Source of the DNA: a virus
Virus genome (UHGV): UHGV-0235457
Reading direction: 5' to 3' (one strand)
DNA length: 38,103 bases
A model generated the notes under the pieces. The model made no database searches and was not told where the DNA came from. It saw only the letters and a list, made by a program, of their open reading frames with translations. Numbering within the stretch: position 1 is the first letter of the stretch; the number at the start of each line of letters is the position of its first letter. Position numbers and translations under genes: made by a program. Below are positions 114 to 38,083 of this stretch, one piece after another.

Positions 114-586
114 GTATTTGTATTTTGTTAAATGGCGGTAAAGTGGCGATGGTGTGGCGATATGCAGAAATAATGATAGTACACGTCTGTTTAAACTCTA
201 AGGGTGAAGCAAAACTCTCCTGCAACTCATCTGCATTTCGCATATTGAACTAGGGCCTTGGTTAAACCAAAGTTTTTTCTGGGATCTTCCCACTCAACTT
301 CATTTTTCCTCCTACCATCCACCAAAAGGTGTCTGCGCTACTCTATCTTTTTTAATCTGACAACATCCTGAGAAAAAGACAAATTCGTTAGATTTACTGT
401 CTTTCTGCTGCCTCGAATGCTGATGTCTGCAGCACTGATAATAACTCTATCTCTTTGATATAGATCTTTTTTTTGATGAATTGCACGGCATATTATCGTG
501 ATGGCACCTTCTTGTTAAAGGTGTTGTACTCCTCATCTCGATTTTATGATGTGGGCTATGATTGGTTAGTAATAGAGTGTATCGGT

Positions 587-868
587 ATGCGATGTGGTTT
601 ATTAATGGCAATCTGCCTTTGTTTGGTATCTTTTAGTGGGTATGCAGCAACAGGAAAGTCAGATGCTCAGATCAAGAAAGAAATAATTAAAGAATCCATT
701 GAATCTTATCCAGGCAATTGTGCGTGTCCGTATAATCATGCAAGGAATGGTAGTAGATGTGGTGGACGCAGTGCATATAGCCGTACTGGAGGGTATGACG
801 TGGTATGTTATGAAAGTGATGTTACCGATGAAATGATCCGGCAATGGAAGCAGGAGAATGCTGAGTAA
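587..868 (+). CDS. Small secreted Cys-containing protein of unknown function (cargo); start may be 473
   Basis: ORF 473-868; internal ATG at 587 gives MRCGLLMAICLCLVSFSGYAA signal-peptide-like N-terminus, 4 Cys in mature part; AT-rich surroundings. Confidence 0.45.
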   Translation: MRCGLLMAICLCLVSFSGYAATGKSDAQIKKEIIKESIESYPGNCACPYNHARNGSRCGGRSAYSRTGGYDVVCYESDVTDEMIRQWKQENAE

Positions 869-936: not shown

Positions 937-969
937 AAAAAGAAACCCCGCAGTTTTTACGCTGCGGGG
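937..969 (-). terminator. Rho-independent terminator downstream of the hok-like gene
   Basis: CCCCGCAG / CTGCGGGG stem with 8-nt loop, followed on the minus strand by TTTCTTTTT. Confidence 0.45.
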
Positions 970-1057
970 GTGTCATTCATGCCTATGAGATAGGGTGCCT
1001 TATCGGCCTTACCCTAACAACCGATTGACGGGGAGTTGCCTCCCCGTCGCGGTTTCC

Positions 1058-1198
1058 TTACTGCTTACACTGTAAGAACGCCGCAAACTCCGCTCCCCAG
1101 AAGCTCATCCGTATTTCACACAGCGAACCGTGCAGCATCCAGATGATGAGGATTACCGTCACGCAGAACGTGATGGCCGTAAGCGATTTTTGCGACAT
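1058..1198 (-). CDS. Hok/Gef-family type I toxin, 46 aa (below the ORF-track length cut-off)
   Basis: Hand translation MSQKSLTAITFCVTVILIIWMLHGSLCEIRMSFWGAEFAAFLQCKQ: N-terminal TM helix, conserved SLCE and AAFL-C motifs as I recall them from HokA; AAGGAG 7 nt upstream of ATG. Confidence 0.6.
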   Translation of the reverse strand: MSQKSLTAITFCVTVILIIWMLHGSLCEIRMSFWGAEFAAFLQCKQ

Positions 1199-1387
1199 AG
1201 CGCTTGCTCCTTTGTTGGAGAGGCGCTAACCTATCACTTGCTAGGTTGACGGGTTAGGGCCTCGGTTAAACAGAAATGTTTTCCGGGGCCTTTCCACATC
1301 CGGTCTTCGGGTATTCCCTCCGACCATCAGCCGAAAGGCACCCGCACGTAATCTATCGCTTTTTTGTTACTCCGGCAATTCTGCCTG

Positions 1388-1648
1388 TTAATTCTGAGGT
1401 AAAGGCAAACTCATCTGATTGTTTCCCCTGTGTGAAGCTGGCAGCTCATGCCACGGGATACCTTCTGATGAGTGAACGCCGGAGGCGTGTTTCGATGTGA
1501 ATTTATGGAAAGCTTCCAGTGTTGAGAAGCATACGCCGCATTCTAGGTTGTTACACTGGTAATACTTTTGCCGCACGGTGTTTGAATCATTTTCCGGACG
1601 ACTGGTGCGGATACGGGCAGATGCGCCACAAAGCGGACAACGGAACAT
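1388..1648 (-). CDS. ogr: Ogr/Delta-family zinc-finger late transcription activator
   Basis: MFRCPLCGASARIRTSR...YYQCNNLEC resembles P2 Ogr as recalled; AAAGGAGG RBS; sits next to gene D as in P2. Confidence 0.85.
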   Translation of the reverse strand: MFRCPLCGASARIRTSRPENDSNTVRQKYYQCNNLECGVCFSTLEAFHKFTSKHASGVHSSEGIPWHELPASHRGNNQMSLPLPQN

Positions 1649-1690: not shown

Positions 1691-2800
1691 TCACTCTGTT
1701 TCCGCTATCCATTCCGGGATTTTTGCCTCAAGCTCAAGCTGCGTGGTAAAGCCGCTGTTATCAATGGTGTGCTCGGCTTTTGCAATAATCCAGTCCTGAT
1801 TATCAATCTCGCTTTTAAATCCTGTTACCGTGCCATGCATTTCGGGGTAGAGTTCTGCTCGTCCACGTGCCAGCGTGATGGAGAATGATGCGGCTCCGCG
1901 TTGTAGTTGTTGCCACTTTGCCGCCGCTGCGCGTCTTGCTGCCTGCTCGTTCTGATAAGTCTTGCGTAACACAAACACATTGCCTTCCGCGCCTTCCATA
2001 TAATCACCTTCACGGCTGCTGCTTTTCTCTTTTTTCGGTTTTGGCGGTTTGCGGCGTTTCACGCTGACTTTTTTCTTTTTCCCGTAATTAAGATCAAGCC
2101 AGTAAGCGCGTACCCCCGTATACGCCTCGCGGTCAGCAATGCGGAACTGATGGCGATCGCCGCTACTGCGTGTGATGGCGAACGATGGCAACGGCTGGCC
2201 CTGTGCGTTCACGCCACCGCCGGGCATGATGAATAACAGATTACCGCTTTTTACCGTGGTGATTGCGCCCAGCATTTCCGCCATGCGCGTAAGGAAGGAC
2301 ATGTCACTTTCTTCGGTCTGGTCGGCGTGGTCGATTTCGATATCCATCAGCATTTCGCTGATTTGCGGTTTCAGACCGTACCGATGAGCGATGGCGGATA
2401 CCACACGCTCAACGGTCACATCATGCCAGGACACCTCACGTTTAACGTTAAATTCATCCCGAAAATCTGCGCTTCTGGCTGAAACAGTCAGCCTGTCCGG
2501 CGGTCCTTCGTGAGCGATTTCATCAACAATGTAAGTGCCTTTTTCTGTCAGCGGTTCTCCTTTCCAGCCAATGAGAACCGTCAGGCGCGCGCCCCGTGGC
2601 GGTAGCTGCAACTGACCATCCGCATCATCCAGCGTGATGGTGAGCTGGTCCGCCTCAAATCCCCGGTTGTCGGTCAGCGACAGGCTCATCAGGCGCTCTG
2701 CCACGCCGGACAGCGTTTTACCCTCCGCGAGAATATCAAAATCCGGCATTTTCACGGGGTCTGTGCCCTGACTGAGCAATTGCATGGTGGTGTCGGTCAT
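1691..2800 (-). CDS. Phage late control gene D tail protein (P2 gpD-like)
   Basis: ORF 1691-2932; N-terminal 44 codons are low-complexity, so start set at ATG 2800 preceded by GGGAGGG; C-terminal region resembles gpD family as recalled. Confidence 0.8.
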   Translation of the reverse strand: MTDTTMQLLSQGTDPVKMPDFDILAEGKTLSGVAERLMSLSLTDNRGFEADQLTITLDDADGQLQLPPRGARLTVLIGWKGEPLTEKGTYIVDEIAHEGPPDRLTVSARSADFRDEFNVKREVSWHDVTVERVVSAIAHRYGLKPQISEMLMDIEIDHADQTEESDMSFLTRMAEMLGAITTVKSGNLLFIMPGGGVNAQGQPLPSFAITRSSGDRHQFRIADREAYTGVRAYWLDLNYGKKKKVSVKRRKPPKPKKEKSSSREGDYMEGAEGNVFVLRKTYQNEQAARRAAAAKWQQLQRGAASFSITLARGRAELYPEMHGTVTGFKSEIDNQDWIIAKAEHTIDNSGFTTQLELEAKIPEWIAETE

Positions 2801-2957
2801 CTGTTCCCTCCCTGTGCGGCATGGTCGCATGTGCGTGCGGAGTGGGTTACTGCTTTTTGTTGTCGCCGTGGCGGGAGAATAGCGCAGGGGTGAGATTACG
2901 CGCGTGGTGGGTGATGATTGTTGCTGAATCATTTAACGGATACAAGGGGCTGAAGCT
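2801..2957. promoter_or_regulatory. Divergent intergenic region between D and the sheath gene; presumed late promoters
   Basis: 157 bp non-coding between divergent starts; no promoter elements identified with confidence. Confidence 0.3.
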
Positions 2958-4142
2958 ATGAGTGAAACTCGTTTTCATGGTGCCCGTGTTACGGAAAGTA
3001 CCGACCTGGTAACAGCGATTAATGATGTTGATTCCAGTGTTATCGGTATCGTGGCAACGGCGGATGATGCGGATGCGGAGCTGTTCCCGCTGAACAAGCC
3101 CACACTGCTGACCCGCGTCAATGACGTGCTGGGAAAATGCGGAACAACGGGGACGCTTTATCGTGCGCTTAAGGCCATCGCAGACCAGGTGAGCACAAAG
3201 GTGATCGTCGTTCGCGTGGCTGAACACAAAGAAGAAGACGGAAAAACGCAGGATCAACTGGTTATCGGTGGTTCTGAATCTGACGGCAGCTATACGGGGA
3301 TGTATGCGCTGCTTGTTGCAGAGCAGGATGAAAGCATCGGATACCGTCCGCGTATTCTGGCCGCGCCGGAGCTGGACACGGAGGCGGTAACAAAATCCCT
3401 GTGCGTGATTGCGGGTAAACTGCGCGCGTTTGTGTATGCCTCATGTCACGGCTGTAACACGATGGCTGAGGCGATGACCTACCGCCAGAAATTCAACGAA
3501 CGTGAGGTGATGCTCTTATGGCCGGACTTCATCGCCTACAACCCGAAAAGTGGCAAAAACGAAACGTTCCCCGCGCCTGCTTATGCGTGCGGCCTTCGTG
3601 CGTACATTGACCATGAGCAGGGATGGCACAAATCACTGTCCAACGTTCCGGTTAAAAATGTGCTGGGGATGTCGAGGCATGTGTTCTGGTCGTTGCAGGC
3701 CGAAGACAGTGATGCCAACAGCCTCAACAACAAAGAAATCACGACCATTATTCGTCGCAACGGGTTCCGCTTCTGGGGCAACCGCACACCGGAAACGAAC
3801 GCCTACATCTTTGAGGTGTACACCCGAACCGCACAGGTGCTGGCTGATTCAATTGCGGAAGCGCAGTTTGAAACCATCGACAGTCCACTGACGCCTGCGA
3901 ACGTGAAGGATGTTATCAGTGCCATCAGGGCAAAACTGGATTCACTGGTTACTGCCGGGAAACTGATTGGTGCGGAGTGCTGGTATGACGTGGTGGATAA
4001 CGGCACCACGAATTTACGTCAGGGGCGTGTGCGTATTCGCTACAAATATACGCCTGTTCCCCCGCTGGAAGACATGGAGCTTTACCAGTCGTTTACTGAT
4101 GAATTCTTTGGTCCCGCATTTGCGGTGCTGGGAGGTGCCTGA
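2958..4142 (+). CDS. Contractile tail sheath protein (P2 gpFI-like)
   Basis: 394 aa; DADAELFPLNKP and AIADQ motifs as recalled for P2 FI; AAGGGG RBS. Confidence 0.9.
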   Translation: MSETRFHGARVTESTDLVTAINDVDSSVIGIVATADDADAELFPLNKPTLLTRVNDVLGKCGTTGTLYRALKAIADQVSTKVIVVRVAEHKEEDGKTQDQLVIGGSESDGSYTGMYALLVAEQDESIGYRPRILAAPELDTEAVTKSLCVIAGKLRAFVYASCHGCNTMAEAMTYRQKFNEREVMLLWPDFIAYNPKSGKNETFPAPAYACGLRAYIDHEQGWHKSLSNVPVKNVLGMSRHVFWSLQAEDSDANSLNNKEITTIIRRNGFRFWGNRTPETNAYIFEVYTRTAQVLADSIAEAQFETIDSPLTPANVKDVISAIRAKLDSLVTAGKLIGAECWYDVVDNGTTNLRQGRVRIRYKYTPVPPLEDMELYQSFTDEFFGPAFAVLGGA

Positions 4143-26025: not shown

Positions 26026-26340
26026 TCAGTCTCCTTTGATGCCAGTGTTTACAACCTGACAAGCCTCTTTGAGCACCCAGTCAACAGCGTCTTTCCATGC
26101 TCCGGTTTCGGCTGGCGGATTCTCACGCTTTACCAGTTCATAGAAATGTACTGCTCTAACCAGTCCATCTGACGGTTTTGCCTGTAGTGCAGCCTGAGCT
26201 ATGCGGTATGCCTGGAGCATACGGGCGTCGTTGATATCCATTCCGAACGGAATTTCTGATGATTGTGACTCTGCATCTTCAAGCCTGGCAATTTCTTTAC
26301 GTAAGAAGTATTTCAACTCTTGTTTCTGTTTTCTGTTCAT
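26026..26340 (-). CDS. Hypothetical protein
   Basis: 104 aa; overlaps upstream gene stop. Confidence 0.5.
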
Positions 26341-26669
26341 GCGTTTTTTTCCTTTTTGTCTGTCACTTCTTTCCTGATAATTTCATTGCACAAATCCACG
26401 CACTCATTGCAGATGTAAACAGACGGTCCGGCAATCACCTTTGTGACTTCGTACTGGGATTTATTGCAGAAACTGCAATAAACCGTCTTCTCGCCTGAAG
26501 TCCATGTTTTGCTGGTTTCGCCAGACATCAGTTGTTTGAGGTCTTTTTCACGACGAAGAACTATCTGGCCACATTCAGCTATTTTTTGGATGTTGACATT
26601 TTCTTCTTTCGCCAGCGCTTCCATCCGCTCAATCAGTCGCTGCGCTTTTTCTCTGTCAATGTGTTGCAT
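26337..26669 (-). CDS. Protein with C-terminal ClpX-type zinc-binding domain
   Basis: [38 protein letters not shown] closely parallels the ClpX N-domain C4 motif as recalled; AAGGGGGA RBS. Confidence 0.75.
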
Positions 26670-26732: not shown

Positions 26733-27044
26733 TTATTCGGGAAATAACGCCCGGATATTTCCGGCCATCTGACTGGTTATCTGTGCGGCTGATACTGGCT
26801 GTGACGCGGGGCGTTCTGTCCTGGTTTGTGTCATTGATAACGCCTCATCATCAGCCCATGCAGCCAGTCGGTAAGCCTCTGCCGGATTCATTTTCAGTAG
26901 TGCCAGCCCGGCCAGAAAAGCCACGCGTTGACCACTTTTGCGGGCTTCTGGTGTAAGGCTGTCCAGCCAGGCGCATGCTTCGCCTTCGTTCTTGACGGCG
27001 GCGGGCTTCAGATAGAAACTTATCCGTCTGGTTGGTGTCGTCAT
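26733..27044 (-). CDS. ParR-like centromere-binding adaptor
   Basis: Internal ATG 27044 with AAGGAG; RRISFYLKP, LDSLTPEARK, FLAGLAL and C-terminal IRALFPE parallel plasmid R1 ParR as recalled. Confidence 0.6.
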   Translation of the reverse strand: MTTPTRRISFYLKPAAVKNEGEACAWLDSLTPEARKSGQRVAFLAGLALLKMNPAEAYRLAAWADDEALSMTQTRTERPASQPVSAAQITSQMAGNIRALFPE

Positions 27045-27048
27045 TGGT

Positions 27049-28008
27049 TTACTCCTTGTCCATTGCGTACAGCCCATTAACCAGAGCAAACTGTGGCACC
27101 CCGTCCGCGATGAAAGTCGCATTAACTCCGCAGGCTTCGCGGATAGCGGGTGCCACAATCTCTGCCCCGCCACCGACAACCATCACCCGCCCGTAACCCG
27201 AAAAACCCGCCAGCGCGCGGATCACGCGTTGTTTCAGTGTTTCTTCCTTTTCACGAATAACCGCCATCAGGCTGGCGTAATGCGCGTCATTGTGGATGTG
27301 CTGGCGCAGCCAGGCTTCATCATGGCGATGTTCGATAATGGTATTGGCGATGTGGTGACTGGTACGCATACCGTTAGTGGCCATCACCGACAGTACGGCA
27401 TCGGCCATCAGGGAAACGCCTACGTGTGGATCGCAAAACACCTGGCTGATACCTGCCAGTTGTCCCTGAACCTTTGCCACATCCAGCGTGGTTCCGCCTA
27501 AATCCACAATCAGCAGGGATTCAAACGGACTCATGTCAGCCAGTGCTTTAAAACCAGCCGGTATGGATTCAGGCATAACCCGTACGTTACGGATAGTGAA
27601 TGCTTTTCCGTTCTGGTACGCCACCGGGCGCATGACGTTTGCTTTTTTGCGGTTGATGTTGGCTATGTCCGGCTGTGCGTTTGTGTCGAAATACTCGCTC
27701 AGTGGCAGGGTGACAACCACATCCACCTCCTGTGGCGTGATGCCTGATTTGACCAGCGCGTGATGAATGGCAATGACATTCACATCGCTGTACTGGTATT
27801 GCGTATCGGTCGTCTGGACAAAGCGATCGCTGACCGGATCAAAACCATAGCGCACGCCATCAAGCATGTAGTTCGCGGGCTGCGTGCCACCGAACGGCGC
27901 AGACCATTCCGACTTGAAGCTGTTCGGGCTGATGGCGTTGCGGCGTTCGCCGTTCTCAGTCCATGCCAGCTTGATGTTGGTGGAGCCGTCGTCGATACAA
28001 ATTTTCAT
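27049..28008 (-). CDS. ParM/StbA-like actin-family ATPase
   Basis: IDDGSTNIKL (phosphate 1), DLGGTTLD (phosphate 2), VVGGGA (adenosine) motifs; 319 aa; N-terminus parallels R1 ParM as recalled. Confidence 0.75.
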   Translation of the reverse strand: MKICIDDGSTNIKLAWTENGERRNAISPNSFKSEWSAPFGGTQPANYMLDGVRYGFDPVSDRFVQTTDTQYQYSDVNVIAIHHALVKSGITPQEVDVVVTLPLSEYFDTNAQPDIANINRKKANVMRPVAYQNGKAFTIRNVRVMPESIPAGFKALADMSPFESLLIVDLGGTTLDVAKVQGQLAGISQVFCDPHVGVSLMADAVLSVMATNGMRTSHHIANTIIEHRHDEAWLRQHIHNDAHYASLMAVIREKEETLKQRVIRALAGFSGYGRVMVVGGGAEIVAPAIREACGVNATFIADGVPQFALVNGLYAMDKE

Positions 28009-28032: not shown

Positions 28033-30924
28033 TTAATCGGTTACAGGATTTTTAAATCCCGCTTTTGCCTGTTTTGTGCGCGCTTCATATATCGCGGCAC
28101 GTTTTTGCTCATTTACGGGATTTGTGAGTCCCGTTTCTGTCTGTTTTTTGTTTCCACTGGTCAGGCTACCCCGCAGCAGGTCTGCTTTGCGGCGGGCGCG
28201 TTCAGTGGTTTCACTGATTCTCTGTGCGTGCTCTGCGTCACGGATGGCGCGCAGCATGTCAGAAAGCATGGTAACGGGGGTTTTCATGGTGTTCTGGCCC
28301 TGCTGAAGTGTGGATGCCAGGCGTGCGGTGGCTTCGGGGTCTGATGCCCCCAGCTGTTCCAGATAGCTGGCGACCGGGTTATGGCGGATCTCCGTGCTGC
28401 TTACGCCGTGGTTACGGCTCAGACGCTGCCAGAGCTGCGTGATCCGGCTGTCCGGTCGGGTATCCGGTTTGCGTACAATTTCAAATCCCTGAGGTGCAAT
28501 GATGCTGCCGTCAACGTACAGACTGCCGCCCCGTAACAGGTGCTGCATCTGCTGTTCACCGATATGCAGGCCGAGAGATTCAGCAGACTCCCGCCATTCT
28601 TTAGCGAGTAATTCGTGGTTATCAGGCAAAGGCCGCTGCTGTTTGCGGCTCTGTGTCCAGCTCTGCATTTCATCACTGCTGTTTTTTGCCTGTTTGTCAC
28701 GAAGCGAACGCATCAGCGCCCGGCGTTCGTGCCGTTTCAGTGAGCGCATCCATTCGTTCACTTCAACGCCGTCAAGGAGCTGCGGCCATGGTGCTGGCCG
28801 TTCTTCCGGCTGTTCTGTCCCGTTGTTGTCCGTTTCCTGTACACGGGGACAGTTATTGCCACGAGTCCAAGGGGCGGCAGGGCCGCCCTGAAGGTCAAAA
28901 CCATTTTCGCGGGCACTGTCTTCCGCTTCCGGTTTGCGTCTTACCAGCTTCCAGTTATCCGGATGCGTGCACACACGGGAGGATTCCCCGATGAGTGGTG
29001 ACCAGATCCCGTAAATCTGTACGCTCTGTTCGCCGTAATCGTTTAGCTCATCGGCGAGGTCGTAGGCGGTGCGAATCAGGTAGTCTTTGCGTGGAACAAG
29101 TACGCCGCCCTGTTTCTCTATGTAGGTGGCAAAACATCCGGCATCAGCGGCGGCAAGAACCGCATCCATTGCGTCATCCTTTAGCCGTTGCGGGCCTTCC
29201 GGGTTGCGTGCCATCTGGCTGGCAAGGCGGCGCAGTTCACGCCATACCTGGCGGGAGGGGATGCCAAAGAACTGGAACTGGCGGACCCGGTGAAGGCGCG
29301 CCCAGCCGATGGCGCGTTCCACGCTCTCGGCCATTGATTTTCCGGTTTCGTGGTCAACGCGTGGCTTGCCCGTTTTCGGGTCGATGCCATCCACGGCACG
29401 GCTGTCCAGGTTTTTCCCGATGTAGGTGGCGATGTAGCTGGTCGGTGTGCCTTTTGAGCCGTCGACGTACTCCGCCTTAAAGCGTGGGGTAATATCATCA
29501 CCCAGCTCGTGACGATCTTCCTGAATGGCAATATCGCGGGTGTGGGACACAATAGTGTCGATTTCTTCCGGATGAGCAAAGACCATCATATGCCAGTGCA
29601 CGGTGCCGTCATGGTGAGGCTCCACCGTGCGGATGCCATACCAGCGCAGGCCGTCGCGGTTCAGTTTCTTGCGGACCGCCGCAAAAAACGTGTTAACCAG
29701 GTAATCGCTGGAGTCGCGCATGGTGGCCCCGTTCCATTTGGGATTCGGATGACCGTTCTCTGTTGTGGCGTGGTATTTTGACGGGCAGGTGACAGTCAGA
29801 AACACCGCTTTGTCGCCACGGGCTTCGGCCAGAAGTTCCAGCCCCTTCATGGTGGCCATCATTTCTGCCTTACGGTGAACCGGGTTACTTACTCCCGCGT
29901 AATACACTGTCTCGAGATCAATCGTGAACCCATCTTCGTTTTCCAGCATGAAACTTTTCAGGAAATCGCGTGTTTTCTCGCGCTGTGCGCGAAACTCGCT
30001 TAATGCGTCCTGGCTCAGATAGGGCGATGTTTTTCTGGAAACCAGACAGGCGGCGCGGAGTTGTTCTTCTCTCCACTCGCAACGTAACAGCCACAGTTTG
30101 CGTTTCCACCATTCCGCACAGGTCAGGCGAAGGATTGCGCCCGGCAGCAGCTCCGTGTCCGGTCCGTTCCTCCGGTCTTTATCTGTTGTCAGTGCGTCAT
30201 AATGTGGAGGCATGATGTGCAGGTGTAACGCCATGCGGGCCAGCATCTGATACGCCTTCAGCGTTACATCCATGGTCAGTTCGCCATCGGTCGCGCCAAA
30301 GCCATCGCAGAGTTTTTCGAAGGTGCTGCTGAACATCGCCGCCGTCATGGTGGCCAGCGTCTGTATCTGGTGTTTGTTGAGCTGCGGCAGGTAAAGCAAA
30401 TCGTCCAGGCGTTCGCGTCCGGCAAGGGAGCGATAACCCGGTGTCAGCCAGCGCCCGTCAGTGCGATCCAGACGTTCGAATATTTTGCGCAGGGTTCCGC
30501 GTGTATAGCGTTCCGCCTGCCAGCTCTTTTTGCCTTTCTGACGATCGGCTTCCTGCTTCTTGCGCAGGAAAGAGAGGTGGCGGCTCAGAGGTTCTCGCAG
30601 ATAAACGGGAAGCACCTTCAGTGTGGCAAAGGCACGGGCTACCGGGTCTTGTTCTGTTGCCCGGCGCTTACTGATGATGCTCTGTGCCAGCTTTTCACGC
30701 TGTCCGGCTTCCTCAAGGGATGCCATGAGTTTTTTACCCATGGCGGATTGTGCGAAAAAGGCTTCTTCCTTCGCTTCCTGTTCTTCCTGTGCCCTTTTGT
30801 CCGCCTCAAGGTAGTAACGGATGGCGCGTTGCAGGTCGGTTTCAGTTTCCTGCCTGCGCTCCGTAAATCTGGCCGGATCAATAGCTGGTCGTGGTTCATT
30901 CCAGCTCCATGCAAACGCACTCAT
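28033..30924 (-). CDS. Rolling-circle replication initiator (P2 gpA-like); alternative GTG start at 30951
   Basis: HWHMMVF (HUH-like) and YIATYIGK motifs; ATG 30924 overlaps upstream stop (ATGA). Confidence 0.85.
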   Translation of the reverse strand: MSAFAWSWNEPRPAIDPARFTERRQETETDLQRAIRYYLEADKRAQEEQEAKEEAFFAQSAMGKKLMASLEEAGQREKLAQSIISKRRATEQDPVARAFATLKVLPVYLREPLSRHLSFLRKKQEADRQKGKKSWQAERYTRGTLRKIFERLDRTDGRWLTPGYRSLAGRERLDDLLYLPQLNKHQIQTLATMTAAMFSSTFEKLCDGFGATDGELTMDVTLKAYQMLARMALHLHIMPPHYDALTTDKDRRNGPDTELLPGAILRLTCAEWWKRKLWLLRCEWREEQLRAACLVSRKTSPYLSQDALSEFRAQREKTRDFLKSFMLENEDGFTIDLETVYYAGVSNPVHRKAEMMATMKGLELLAEARGDKAVFLTVTCPSKYHATTENGHPNPKWNGATMRDSSDYLVNTFFAAVRKKLNRDGLRWYGIRTVEPHHDGTVHWHMMVFAHPEEIDTIVSHTRDIAIQEDRHELGDDITPRFKAEYVDGSKGTPTSYIATYIGKNLDSRAVDGIDPKTGKPRVDHETGKSMAESVERAIGWARLHRVRQFQFFGIPSRQVWRELRRLASQMARNPEGPQRLKDDAMDAVLAAADAGCFATYIEKQGGVLVPRKDYLIRTAYDLADELNDYGEQSVQIYGIWSPLIGESSRVCTHPDNWKLVRRKPEAEDSARENGFDLQGGPAAPWTRGNNCPRVQETDNNGTEQPEERPAPWPQLLDGVEVNEWMRSLKRHERRALMRSLRDKQAKNSSDEMQSWTQSRKQQRPLPDNHELLAKEWRESAESLGLHIGEQQMQHLLRGGSLYVDGSIIAPQGFEIVRKPDTRPDSRITQLWQRLSRNHGVSSTEIRHNPVASYLEQLGASDPEATARLASTLQQGQNTMKTPVTMLSDMLRAIRDAEHAQRISETTERARRKADLLRGSLTSGNKKQTETGLTNPVNEQKRAAIYEARTKQAKAGFKNPVTD
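28041..28138. repeat. Two imperfect ~38-bp direct repeats, each with an internal near-palindrome, in the 3' end of the replication gene just upstream of the ParM-like gene
   Basis: TTACAGGATTTTTAAATCCCGCTTTTGCCTGTTTTGTG vs TTACGGGATTTGTGAGTCCCGTTTCTGTCTGTTTTTTG. Confidence 0.45.
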
Positions 30925-31310
30925 GGCTGGTATCCCGTCACGCGCTGCCACTCCTGCGAGAAGAGGGCGGAAAGGCGGTTAAATTCAGCGGTGTATTCAC
31001 TCAGCGAGGCACACCCGCCAGCAGTGCGATGCGCCAGCATTGCTGCAAATACGGAGGCCGGGGAGTCGTAATACGCCAGCAGTGATTCGCCGTGCGGTGT
31101 CAGGCAGTGCAACGCCAGTCCGTGTGGTGTGAAATCCACGCGGTAGCAGTCGTCTACTGTGAAATAAAGGGTGTCTGCATTCTCCGGTTTTGTGGTGCGT
31201 GCTCTGTTGTCACGACCACGGATGTAGAGATCAAATAACCCCTGAAGAACGGGAGCCAGACGGGTGTCCTGTGTGCGCACCCATCTTGTGAAGTCATGAG
31301 CGTCAATCAT
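30921..31310 (-). CDS. Hypothetical early protein
   Basis: 129 aa; translationally coupled to the replication gene. Confidence 0.55.
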   Translation of the reverse strand: MIDAHDFTRWVRTQDTRLAPVLQGLFDLYIRGRDNRARTTKPENADTLYFTVDDCYRVDFTPHGLALHCLTPHGESLLAYYDSPASVFAAMLAHRTAGGCASLSEYTAEFNRLSALFSQEWQRVTGYQP

Positions 31311-31613: not shown

Positions 31614-31790
31614 GGTGTGGCCTCTTTGCTCGGTGATAGAAATAACTCACCATCCAGAGTTGAGAATCTCGGGGTGGCGAGACGTACAGGGTTCTCAACA
31701 CCGGAGAGCAAAGAATCCGGCCCGACCGAAGTCGGCCCCGTACGCCCCGCCATAATTCTGACGCGAAAAAGACGTGGCAATACAGTACGC

Positions 31791-31816
31791 ACAAAAAAAC
31801 CGCTTGCGCGGTTATG
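31791..31816 (-). terminator. Rho-independent terminator-like hairpin within the early-region non-coding stretch
   Basis: AACCGCGCAAGCGGTT stem followed by T7 on the minus strand. Confidence 0.5.
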
Positions 31817-31935
31817 CGCTTTGCTCTGTATCGGGTTGAGAATCCCGGCACCCGTTTTATGAGGTGCAGCGGAAATGTAACCTGACCGATTGAGGCATGG
31901 CAAGCGGTTTTTTTGTGTGTGCATGTTCTGGTTTC

Positions 31936-35743: not shown

Positions 35744-36745
35744 ATGTCGGTTCGTAAGATTCCATCAGGTAAATGGCTTTGCGAATGTTATCCCTACGGG
35801 GCATCGGGAAAACGCATTCGTAAACAGTTTGCGACAAAAAGTGAGGCGCTCTCTTATGAGCGCCGTTTAATGAATAGTAGAGTTGGAGACGAGTTTCAAG
35901 ATGGTTCTGGTCCTCGTCTTTCTGAGTTGATTGCTCGTTGGTTTGAGATGTACGGTAAAACCTTGTCCTCTGGTGCAGAGCGCAAAGTCAAACTTGAGGC
36001 GATTTGTTCCAGGCTGGGAGATCCATTTGCTTCTCAGTTTGACAAAAATATGTTTGCCACTTATCGGGAAAGAAGGCTATCAGGAGAATGGAATCCCAAG
36101 GGGAAGAAAAAACTTAGTGAAGCAACCGTTAATCGCGAGCAGTCATATCTACATGCTGTTTTTGCCGAACTGAAGCGCCTTGGGGAGTGGTCTGGTGAAA
36201 ACCCCCTGACTGGTATTCGCAAGTTTCGTGAGGAAGAAAAGGAACTGGCGTTTCTGTATGTAGATGAGATTGAACGCCTTCTGATTGCGTGTGATGAGTC
36301 ACGGAATAAAGATTTGGGGGTTGTTGTCCGTATTGGGCTTGCGACTGGTGCTCGGTGGAGTGAAGCAGAAGGATTAAAGCAATCTCAAGTACTGCCCGGT
36401 CGAATCACATTTGTTAAAACTAAAGGAAAGAAGAACCGCACTGTACCGATTTCACCTCAATTGCAGGCTATGCTTCCCAAAAAACGAGGAGCGCTATTTT
36501 CACCATGTTATGAGGCTTTTGACGCTGCAATTAAGAGAGCGAAGATCGAGCTTCCTGATGGGCAATTAACTCATGTGCTACGTCACACGTTTGCCAGTCA
36601 TTTTATGATGCGGGGCGGAAATATTCTTGTGTTGCAAAAAATACTGGGGCATAGCGATATAAAAATGACTATGCGTTATGCGCATTTTGCTCCAGGTCAT
36701 TTAGAGGCTGCTGTTGAATTGAACCCTTTTGACAATAGAGGGTAA
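35744..36745 (+). CDS. int: Tyrosine recombinase integrase, P2-like
   Basis: 333 aa; GKRIRKQF...SEA N-terminus, HVLRHTFASHF and MRYAHF motifs; adjacent to right att repeat. Confidence 0.9.
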   Translation: MSVRKIPSGKWLCECYPYGASGKRIRKQFATKSEALSYERRLMNSRVGDEFQDGSGPRLSELIARWFEMYGKTLSSGAERKVKLEAICSRLGDPFASQFDKNMFATYRERRLSGEWNPKGKKKLSEATVNREQSYLHAVFAELKRLGEWSGENPLTGIRKFREEEKELAFLYVDEIERLLIACDESRNKDLGVVVRIGLATGARWSEAEGLKQSQVLPGRITFVKTKGKKNRTVPISPQLQAMLPKKRGALFSPCYEAFDAAIKRAKIELPDGQLTHVLRHTFASHFMMRGGNILVLQKILGHSDIKMTMRYAHFAPGHLEAAVELNPFDNRG

Positions 36746-37036: not shown

Positions 37037-38083
37037 TCATTTTCTCTGGCCACCAACTACGGGCACTACTTTAACTTTTCGGTCATAGGCAGCTGTCTGT
37101 CGTGGGTTCTTATGCCCGGAAATTGCTTGCTTCTCTTCCAGGCTGCCTTCCAGATCAGAGATACCTTTTGCTTTCAGATCATGAAATGTGAAGTCTATTT
37201 GCAGATGAGGATATTTTTCCTGTGCTGCCGCTTTGACATCACGCCAACGAGAGTTAAAACCATCACGGGTATACTTGCCACCGGTAGTTTGATGAATCAC
37301 AAACAGGCTACTGATTCCCGTTTTTAATGGCAGAGAACGAGCCAGAGCTATCGCTTTCTGCAGACGAGGCGACCAGGCTTTGATTTGCTTAACGCCGGTT
37401 TTTCCCTGACGAATGTAGATCCCGGAATCGAACAGCTGGTCTTTCTGCAATGAAAGTACATCACTCTGTCTGGCCACGCATAAGTAGGCAATCTCCATTG
37501 CTACGCGAACAACATCAGGAGACACTTCATAAACGGCCTGATATTCTTCATCCGTAATATAGCGTTCGCGAGCTTTCTCTTTAAACTGTTTAACTCCCTG
37601 ACAAGGATTCCTCTGAACATAACCTCGTTCATAACCCCAACGGAATACCCGGGACATAAAGCTTTTTTCCCTGTTTGCCTGAGTTCGGCTTGATAAACCG
37701 CGTTGATCCATATAGCGCCGAATATGTTCAGGTTTGATTTTATCCGGGTCGATCTTCCCGAAGACAGGTAGAACTTTTCCGGAATATTTTGTGTAGTCTT
37801 TCCTGGTTTCGACTGCCAAATCCATAAAATCAGGGGAGGTCATGAATTGTTCCGTGAGCGCCTGAAAAGTATTTCTTTCTTTTTCGTCACCGACCGCTTT
37901 TTCATATGCCAGCCATACGGCTGATCGTGGCGCATCCAATGCGCACAGGCGTATCGCTTTGTTATCTTTATTCCTGAATTCGTAGGCCGCTTTGCCCTGG
38001 TAAACACGAGGCGGCATCCAGTTATCTGCTGGGTTCTTTCTCTTTCCGGCCATTAAATATTGCTCCAAAATCAGGTTCATCAT
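37037..38083 (-). CDS. Tyrosine recombinase integrase of a second integrative element
   Basis: 348 aa; HDLKAKG and AAYDR catalytic-region motifs; lies outside the right att repeat, 3' end facing the tRNA fragment. Confidence 0.8.
   Translation of the reverse strand: MMNLILEQYLMAGKRKNPADNWMPPRVYQGKAAYEFRNKDNKAIRLCALDAPRSAVWLAYEKAVGDEKERNTFQALTEQFMTSPDFMDLAVETRKDYTKYSGKVLPVFGKIDPDKIKPEHIRRYMDQRGLSSRTQANREKSFMSRVFRWGYERGYVQRNPCQGVKQFKEKARERYITDEEYQAVYEVSPDVVRVAMEIAYLCVARQSDVLSLQKDQLFDSGIYIRQGKTGVKQIKAWSPRLQKAIALARSLPLKTGISSLFVIHQTTGGKYTRDGFNSRWRDVKAAAQEKYPHLQIDFTFHDLKAKGISDLEGSLEEKQAISGHKNPRQTAAYDRKVKVVPVVGGQRK

Follow-up and report, generated by a model that had tools for sequence, protein, structure and literature searches.

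The viral genome UHGV-0235457, whose whole stretch of 38,103 nt was analysed and is called the window below, probably (at a probability of roughly 0.7) carries an intact hok/sok-type type I toxin–antitoxin cassette. The cassette would be carried as cargo by a P88-like prophage (P2-type, Xuanwuvirus), in the interval separating ogr from the right prophage end, and would work as a mok-independent switch. The apparent lack of the usual mok leader frame, as read from the sequence, taken with a conserved alternative fold that could stand in for mok, was the only point going beyond the current annotation of this locus.

The toxin gene and its product

The ORF at positions 1058–1198 of the minus strand (ATG start, 46 codons and a stop) encodes the peptide MSQKSLTAITFCVTVILIIWMLHGSLCEIRMSFWGAEFAAFLQCKQ. 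Its assignment to the Hok/Gef family, made in the first-pass annotation, held in the present analysis, with PF01848, PHROG 251 and the homolog search in agreement. The Pfam profile PF01848 (HOK_GEF) was matched with 30.1 bits (gathering score, 22; E = 3.7e-7), peptide residues 7–44 being aligned with profile positions 5–42 of 42, and the match to PHROG 251 ('MokW-like host killing') had an E value of 2.5e-23. The search of the protein database revealed 68 homologs from E. coli, Shigella, Salmonella and Klebsiella, among which the source-named ones were designated Hok/Gef, save one 'protein HokA'. BLASTP showed 43% identity with HokA of K-12 and 39% identity over 31 aa with Hok of R1. The best NCBIfam match was the HokA equivalog NF007290, with 35.8 bits, well below the cutoff of 89. 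Judged by these comparisons, the 46-aa peptide is a relative of HokA, yet not HokA.

The conserved Hok motifs SLCEIR and AAFLQC, the N-terminal transmembrane helix and the strong AAGGAG ribosome-binding site listed by the first-pass annotation were all recovered. Both motifs were found in the peptide, which also contains LCE and AEFAAF; a single helix was detected, with a mean hydropathy above 2 across residues 4–27; and AAGGAG is located at 1212..1207, 8 nt ahead of the hok ATG. In the alignment with Hok, HokB and HokC, the residues C12-V-T14, L26-C27-E28 and E37-F-A-A of the peptide corresponded to those of the other proteins, the C-x-T falling inside the hydrophobic segment. The C-x-T, L-C-E and E-x-A-A positions are conserved in >80% of homologs in a Hok survey (10.1101/2025.08.07.668861), and this preprint describes representatives of Hok clusters as toxic. 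The dN/dS ratio of 0.1–0.4 for the peptide versus distant members of the same 46-aa subfamily points to purifying selection on the Hok peptide. By family membership, the ORF at 1058–1198 (minus strand) is classified as a gene for a Hok/Gef-family membrane toxin. Gene callers often skip such small genes or leave them as hypothetical, and this one had been rightly read from the sequence alone.

The hok transcription unit

The predicted elements of the transcription unit are as follows:

1350–1378, minus strand: putative hok promoter, with −35 TTGCCG (1378..1373), a 17 nt spacer and −10 TAGATT (1355..1350)
937–1343, minus strand: predicted full-length hok mRNA of ~406 nt, its 5′ end placed by hok-leader homology
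1207–1212, minus strand: hok Shine–Dalgarno sequence AAGGAG, buried in a local hairpin of the predicted full-length structure
1058–1198, minus strand: hok-family toxin gene
937–969, minus strand: intrinsic terminator of the hok mRNA

The putative promoter begins directly after the ogr stop codon and was found in a relaxed scan with 8 of 12 consensus matches; in most of the homologous loci its −10 hexamer is TAGATT, TAGAAT or TAGAGT. The leader of ~190 bp (1199–1387) proposed in the first-pass annotation could be kept only in part, as its transcribed portion would be ~145 nt (1343..1199), the remainder being the hok promoter. The 5′ end of the mRNA was set at 1343, where the alignment with the Rfam family RF01794 begins. 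The downstream terminator at 937–969 was found again by the terminator scan, as a stem at 969..946 followed by a T-run, and showed covariation in 4 pairs. The hok mRNA of R1 reportedly has a length of 398 nt.

A scan of the whole window against Rfam at the gathering score detected no hok or sok family. In a permissive scan, RF01794 ('sok') aligned end to end with 1343..1188 on the hok-sense strand with 48.2 bits (E = 1.4e-9), short of the gathering score (59). The scores of further 46-aa subfamily members were 38–52 bits, and because of these scores the annotation pipelines mark no RNA here. For the hokC, hokB and R1-like controls, the match was likewise to the sense leader, with 87–118 bits (87 for the R1-like locus). 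In the window and in the loci L004, L005 and L006, the part matched by this 'sok antitoxin' family was the hok-sense leader, between the 5′ end of the mRNA and the AUG of hok, and the annotated sokB and sokC stand on the strand opposite the RF01794 match. Strand calls made from RF01794 need care, since the model fits the hok-sense leader.

Folding of the full-length mRNA

The RNA elements recognized in the hok mRNA are listed in the order of the transcript:

1331–1343, minus strand: tac element GGGUGCCUUUCGG, the mRNA 5′ end, paired with fbi in the minimum free energy (MFE) fold
1285–1294, minus strand: ucb-like box GAAAGGCCCC, 5′ arm of the leader hairpin and alternative partner of tac
1259–1289, minus strand: leader hairpin GGCCCCGG...CCGAGGCC, present in the MFE and consensus folds; on the plus strand, the terminator hairpin of the predicted Sok-like RNA
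1217–1231, minus strand: anti-SD strand GGUUAGCGCCUCUCC, whose CUCC pairs with the hok Shine–Dalgarno sequence in the closed form and whose GCCUC (1224..1220) pairs with GAGGC in the open form
1078–1093, minus strand: intra-coding stretch GCGGAGUUUGCGGCGU, in long-range pairing with the AUG and first codons
1026–1049, minus strand: GC-rich stem-loop just after the hok stop codon, with compensatory changes in 5 pairs
993–1006, minus strand: fbi element CCGAUAAGGCACCC, complementary to tac

The MFE of the full-length hok mRNA was −178.5 kcal/mol (z = −7.1). In this fold, the first 15 nt of the mRNA pair with 1006..993, forming the tac/fbi fold-back, and the ribosome-binding site lies inside the UAGCGCCUCUCC / GGAGCAAGCGCUA hairpin. 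For the analysis of fold conservation, 19 distinct loci of the 46-aa subfamily were collected and aligned. RNAalifold predicted for them the tac/fbi pairing, the leader hairpin, the ribosome-binding-site hairpin, the AUG/AEFAA helix, the post-stop hairpin and the terminator. Helices 1 and 2 of tac/fbi were paired in 100% and 94.7% of cells, with 4 compensatory pairs, a GC to AU compensatory change was observed in the leader hairpin in 8 sequences, and the helix of the AUG with the AEFAA codons (alignment columns 153–168 with 258–273, 14 pairs) had 99.6% of cells paired.

Over the 19 loci, the closed fold had 97.7% of cells paired, in comparison with 33–42% in the slid-partner controls, and 18 pairs changed on both sides, compared with 2–6 in these controls. 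Its covariation score was reached by none of 500 shuffles. The compensatory changes that preserve the helices span E. coli, Salmonella, Citrobacter and Klebsiella. The fold-back regulatory structures for which the first-pass annotation had seen room in the leader were found by folding and are conserved across loci, and according to these models the mRNA folds back in the manner of hok mRNAs, its tac, ucb and fbi elements being conserved. The stem-loop at 1026–1049 is probably the 3′ protective hairpin of the processed mRNA, by analogy with Tr-hok of R1 (PMC9841398).

The Sok-like antisense unit

On the opposite strand, two elements were predicted within the leader region:

1204–1232, plus strand: predicted Sok-like promoter, with −35 TTGCTC (1204–1209), a 17 nt spacer and −10 TAACCT (1227–1232)
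1239–1295, plus strand: predicted Sok-like antisense RNA of ~57 nt, an unpaired 5′ tail followed by the terminator hairpin

The antisense promoter has 6 of 12 consensus matches and was not called in the sigma-70 scans; it was assigned by positional homology to the R1 promoter TTGCGC-17-TATCCT, which was identified by eye in the R1-like sequence. Among the relatives, the −10 hexamer is TAACCT or TATCCT, the 17-nt spacer is retained and the −35 hexamer is TTGCTC, TTGCCT or TTTACT. The predicted RNA folds with −24 kcal/mol (z = −2.9) and fits the annotated sokC (59 nt) and sokB (57 nt) in length and position. By analogy with these RNAs, we infer a Sok-like antisense RNA at about 1239–1295 of the plus strand.

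The conservation of this unit weighs against another explanation, in which the gene would be a hok-type, self-repressed toxin with no working antisense RNA, expressed mainly by ogr read-through and late transcription and serving as a lysis helper. The scan found no intrinsic terminator between ogr and hok (1388 to 1343), which leaves room for read-through from late transcription, and the predicted sok promoter is weak. Additionally, hokW–sokW of the prophage Sp5 causes faster growth arrest and doubled phage release after mitomycin C induction (PMC8621323). A role of this sort without antisense control is nevertheless unlikely. Both hexamers of the antisense promoter (−10 and −35), the distance between them and the terminator hairpin are preserved in several genera at positions homologous to those of R1, sokB and sokC, the cassette has its own conserved promoter, and it has also been located outside the ogr neighbourhood, on plasmids and in lambdoid prophages. 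Moreover, HokW of Sp5 is a different, HokC-like paralog accompanied by the sokW RNA, so the experimental results obtained with it are not directly transferable.

The mok frame and the alternative fold

In R1, the translation of hok requires the mok leader frame to be translated up to the hok start (PMC9841398). A check for such a frame, raised by the first-pass annotation, gave a negative result, as no leader frame enters hok in the window. In 11 of the 19 loci, the window among them, no ATG, GTG or TTG frame extends from the leader to the hok ribosome-binding site; the remaining 8 have GTG or TTG frames only, at non-homologous places. An ATG frame into hok is present at the expected place in every one of the controls (R1-like, hokC and hokB). 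No relevant description of a hok lacking mok, or of hok adjacent to ogr, came up in the literature search, and the latest Hok survey explicitly leaves Mok and Sok aside (10.1101/2025.08.07.668861).

Two upstream ORFs were considered as mok substitutes, one of 28 aa (1327..1241) and one of 21 aa (1299..1234). Both were rejected as not conserved: in the Stx-phage copy they are interrupted or shifted in frame, and the Salmonella copies lack them.

By position, the GAGGC at 1263..1259 (minus strand) corresponds to the mok ribosome-binding site of R1, where GAGG is the mok Shine–Dalgarno sequence (PMC9841398). In the loci, GAGG is invariant except for one GAGA variant (L025b).

Folding of the mRNA without its 3′ part (1343..1020) shifted tac onto GAAAGGCCCC. 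The tac:ucb pairing had 94.1% of cells paired over the 19 loci, with two compensatory pairs, and tac position 7 was mismatched with ucb in 8 of the 19. In the predicted open fold, tac:ucb breaks the leader hairpin, GAGGCCCUAACC then pairs with GGUUAGCGCCUC, the strand that masks the ribosome-binding site, and the ribosome-binding site itself keeps 3 bp only. The open fold was 94.5% paired across the 19 loci, as against 32–57% in the slid controls, an edge that is inflated because the fold was derived from the window's own MFE. Compensatory changes were observed at 10:51, 11:50 and 88:127, and tac positions 10–11 covary with both fbi and ucb. In the locus L025b, the three partners change jointly (GGUCCC, GAGAC and GUCUC), and the three-way covariation of the open fold rests on this one sequence. 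The alternative open fold in the 3′-processed mRNA is, on these models, supported, not proven.

These folds have to be set against a canonical hok/mok/sok organization, in which a leader frame starting from a non-canonical codon after GAGG, or one of the two short ORFs, would be coupled to hok as in R1. The near-invariance of GAGG would suit such coupling, as would frame +1, which is open from 1251 through the hok start. The frames reaching the hok ribosome-binding site are however missing from 11 loci and non-homologous in the others, the two short ORFs are not conserved, and GAGG is constrained by two RNA helices, which account for its conservation without any coding role. Canonical coupling was accordingly judged improbable, and slightly more so than the reading above that has no working antisense RNA.

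As a tentative proposal, to which we give somewhat less than even odds, the 46-aa subfamily may be a natural mok-less form of hok/sok. GAGGC would in this form have been turned into an anti-anti-SD, processing would expose the hok ribosome-binding site, and the antisense RNA would mask GAGGC and block no leader peptide. The subfamily so read ranges over P2-like and lambdoid prophages, some plasmids, and Salmonella arrays of two or three copies.

Proposed mechanism of the mok-independent switch

In the preferred reading, that of an intact hok/sok-type cassette, a weak constitutive promoter would give a stable full-length mRNA that is translationally closed. The closed form would be held by tac:fbi, with the ribosome-binding site in the CUCC:GGAG hairpin and the AUG region paired with the AEFAA codons. 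Slow 3′ trimming would strip fbi, upon which tac would switch to ucb. The tac:ucb pairing would free GAGGC, which could capture the GCCUC of the anti-SD strand, so that the hok ribosome-binding site would be exposed and mok translation would be unneeded. A short unstable antisense RNA (~1239–1295, plus strand) would pair with ucb and GAGGC; since it covers both, its binding would re-close the ribosome-binding site and make an RNase III substrate. Once antisense synthesis stopped, through loss of the element, transcription shut-off by an infecting phage or prophage induction, Hok would be made and the inner membrane depolarised. Within this scheme, we infer the 3′ processing, the antisense transcript, the toxicity and the mok independence. 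The cassette looks like a compact, mok-free hok switch, and its conserved alternative folds make the switch directly testable.

Distribution and genomic context

The position of hok next to ogr was confirmed, the neighbours on the same strand being the ogr/Delta zinc finger gene (1388..1648) and the gene of the gpD baseplate hub (1691..2932). BLASTN of the region 900–1400 identified phage P88 and other Xuanwuvirus (Peduoviridae) phages with 93–95% identity; taken together, the P88, Xuanwuvirus and RefSeq E. coli prophage copies share 93–99% nucleotide identity and the same post-ogr position. Of 5426 complete E. coli genomes (RefSeq), 1269 contain at least 80% of the window region 900–1400, and the best 25 of the 1269 records all have a 'Hok/Gef family protein' beside an 'ogr/Delta-like zinc finger family protein'. 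The gene is annotated as 'MokW-like host killing; hok/gef family protein' in P88 (YP_009113095.1) and as 'Hok/Gef family protein' in RefSeq (WP_000078920.1); in several GenBank phage records it is unannotated or hypothetical, which fits the first-pass remark that the ORF track had missed it. The P88, Xuanwuvirus and RefSeq records annotate the coding sequence only, without an antisense RNA or mRNA elements, and show no difference of importance from the cassette described here. The description of the module as notable was overstated, since annotations of the gene next to ogr exist in many E. coli genomes and phage P88 has one as well: the hok cassette is common, already annotated prophage cargo. 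A 2025–26 survey counted 32,532 hok loci, with a four-fold enrichment in prophages and 'islets' of 2–6 copies (10.1101/2025.08.07.668861).

The gpD–ogr–hok order recurs in P2-like prophages of E. coli and Salmonella, as gpU/gpD–ogr–hok in those of Salmonella. The cassette was also detected elsewhere, at the tail-fibre end of a lambdoid prophage, on plasmid-like contigs close to a TraI relaxase, and in an island of Klebsiella. In some Salmonella P2-like prophages, two or three tandem hok cassettes follow ogr ~498 bp apart, at 2005, 2503 and 3001 in L025 and L026, at 3001 and 3491 in L021 and at 3001 and 3495 in L022, and every tandem copy has its own leader and terminator. The fixed post-ogr position and the tandem amplification in Salmonella mark the ogr–attR junction of P2-like prophages as a cargo slot. 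At the end of one Salmonella P2-like prophage (L015), the STnc540 sRNA was found at 3295–3492 (minus strand, 171.6 bits) immediately beyond the hok cassette, its neighbours being an HU/IHF-like DNA-binding gene and a phenylalanyl-tRNA synthetase beta-subunit gene.

The search for related loci with protein alignment identified 7 loci, three of them on probably contaminant contigs. These three (L007, L008 and L011) come from assemblies labelled Planococcaceae MAG, Vagococcus sp. and Xanthomonas pisi. The peptide of the Planococcaceae and Vagococcus copies is 100% identical to that of the window, and the X. pisi copy is 74% identical; in L008, the flanking DNA is also the same as in the window. 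Most likely, all three are contaminating enterobacterial contigs.

In the loci L019/L020 and L027/L028 (at 3001), the ORF is kept and the tac 5′ end is absent, with fbi retained in at least L019. The leaders look truncated or replaced, so these loci may be deregulated or dead. That the cassette of the window is itself a decaying, non-functional hok remnant, as these tac-less relatives, the missing mok frame and the IS150-cut hokA/mokA locus of K-12 might suggest, is very improbable, since no damage is seen in its ORF, promoter, tac, fbi or terminator, the dN/dS values are those of a constrained peptide and compensatory changes preserve the helices in all four genera.

Other features of the element and possible roles

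The parMR-like genes noted in the first-pass annotation are present, as ParM (27049–28008) and a StbB/ParR-like gene (26733–27179). ParM is full-length, with the StbA_N and ParM C-terminal domains (E = 1e-81), and the StbB/ParR-like gene was identified with E = 6e-24. The pair (26733–28008, minus strand) lies directly after the replication gene gpA (28033–30951, minus strand), and an ORF for a ClpX-type zinc finger is located nearby, at 26337–26669. Together, the two genes give this integrating P2-like phage a partition system in the style of plasmids.

Rfam matches at the gathering score were obtained for the C4 antisense RNA (31670–31757, minus strand, 78.5 bits) and, beside it, for the Hfq-binding RNA isrK (31793–31867, minus strand, 63.1 bits). 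Their presence in the early region points to an RNA-based control of immunity or anti-termination, of the P1/P7 type. Two tyrosine-integrase ORFs lie near each other at the window's far end (35744–36745, plus strand; 37037–38083, minus strand), and one of them may belong to a neighbouring element. Beyond the hok terminator, the ORF at 473–868 (plus strand), with a signal-peptide-like start, matched only PHROG 27544 of unknown function (E = 2.7e-59). The homology with P88 ends at ~935, which makes this region of the prophage end a second cargo slot, of variable content. Neither a tRNA nor an att site was detected in the window, and PADLOC found no defence-system model.

Post-segregational killing, and with it prophage retention, is a plausible role of the cassette, one of several. 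It could also serve in the exclusion of other phages or help lysis. The R1 hok/sok system reduces the plating of T4, as cited in PMC8621323.

Comparison with known hok systems

Like the cassette described here, the hokW–sokW locus of the Stx2 prophage Sp5 is prophage-borne, and the label 'MokW-like host killing' in PHROG 251 and in the P88 annotation was borrowed from it. HokW is a 51-aa, HokC-like protein (MKQQKAM...) with a canonical GGGTGCTTGAGG leader, and the identification of the window gene with HokW was rejected on account of this different paralog. Stx2 phages carry a copy of the 46-aa subfamily too, with 82.6% nucleotide identity and 76% protein identity.

The closest named paralog is HokA of K-12, with the W-M, SLCE and AAFL-CK residues shared. 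The hokA, hokB and hokC genes all have annotated mok frames (mokA being a pseudogene), unlike the gene of the window, and the hokA/mokA locus of K-12 is cut by IS150.

The hok/mok/sok (parB) system of R1 differs from the window cassette in several respects. It is carried by a plasmid, whereas the cassette is carried by a prophage; its peptide has 52 aa in comparison with 46; its mok frame is absent from the window; and the R1-like locus scores 87 bits on RF01794, compared with 48 bits for the leader of the window. The likeness extends to the Hok/Gef peptide, the mRNA of ~400 nt, the tac, ucb and fbi elements and the GAGG/dcb-type pairing. In R1 as in the predicted antisense unit of the window, the antisense promoter, with its 17-nt spacer, overlaps the region of the hok ribosome-binding site, and the antisense RNA consists of a 5′ tail and a hairpin; in both systems, the 3′ terminator of the mRNA is located just after fbi.
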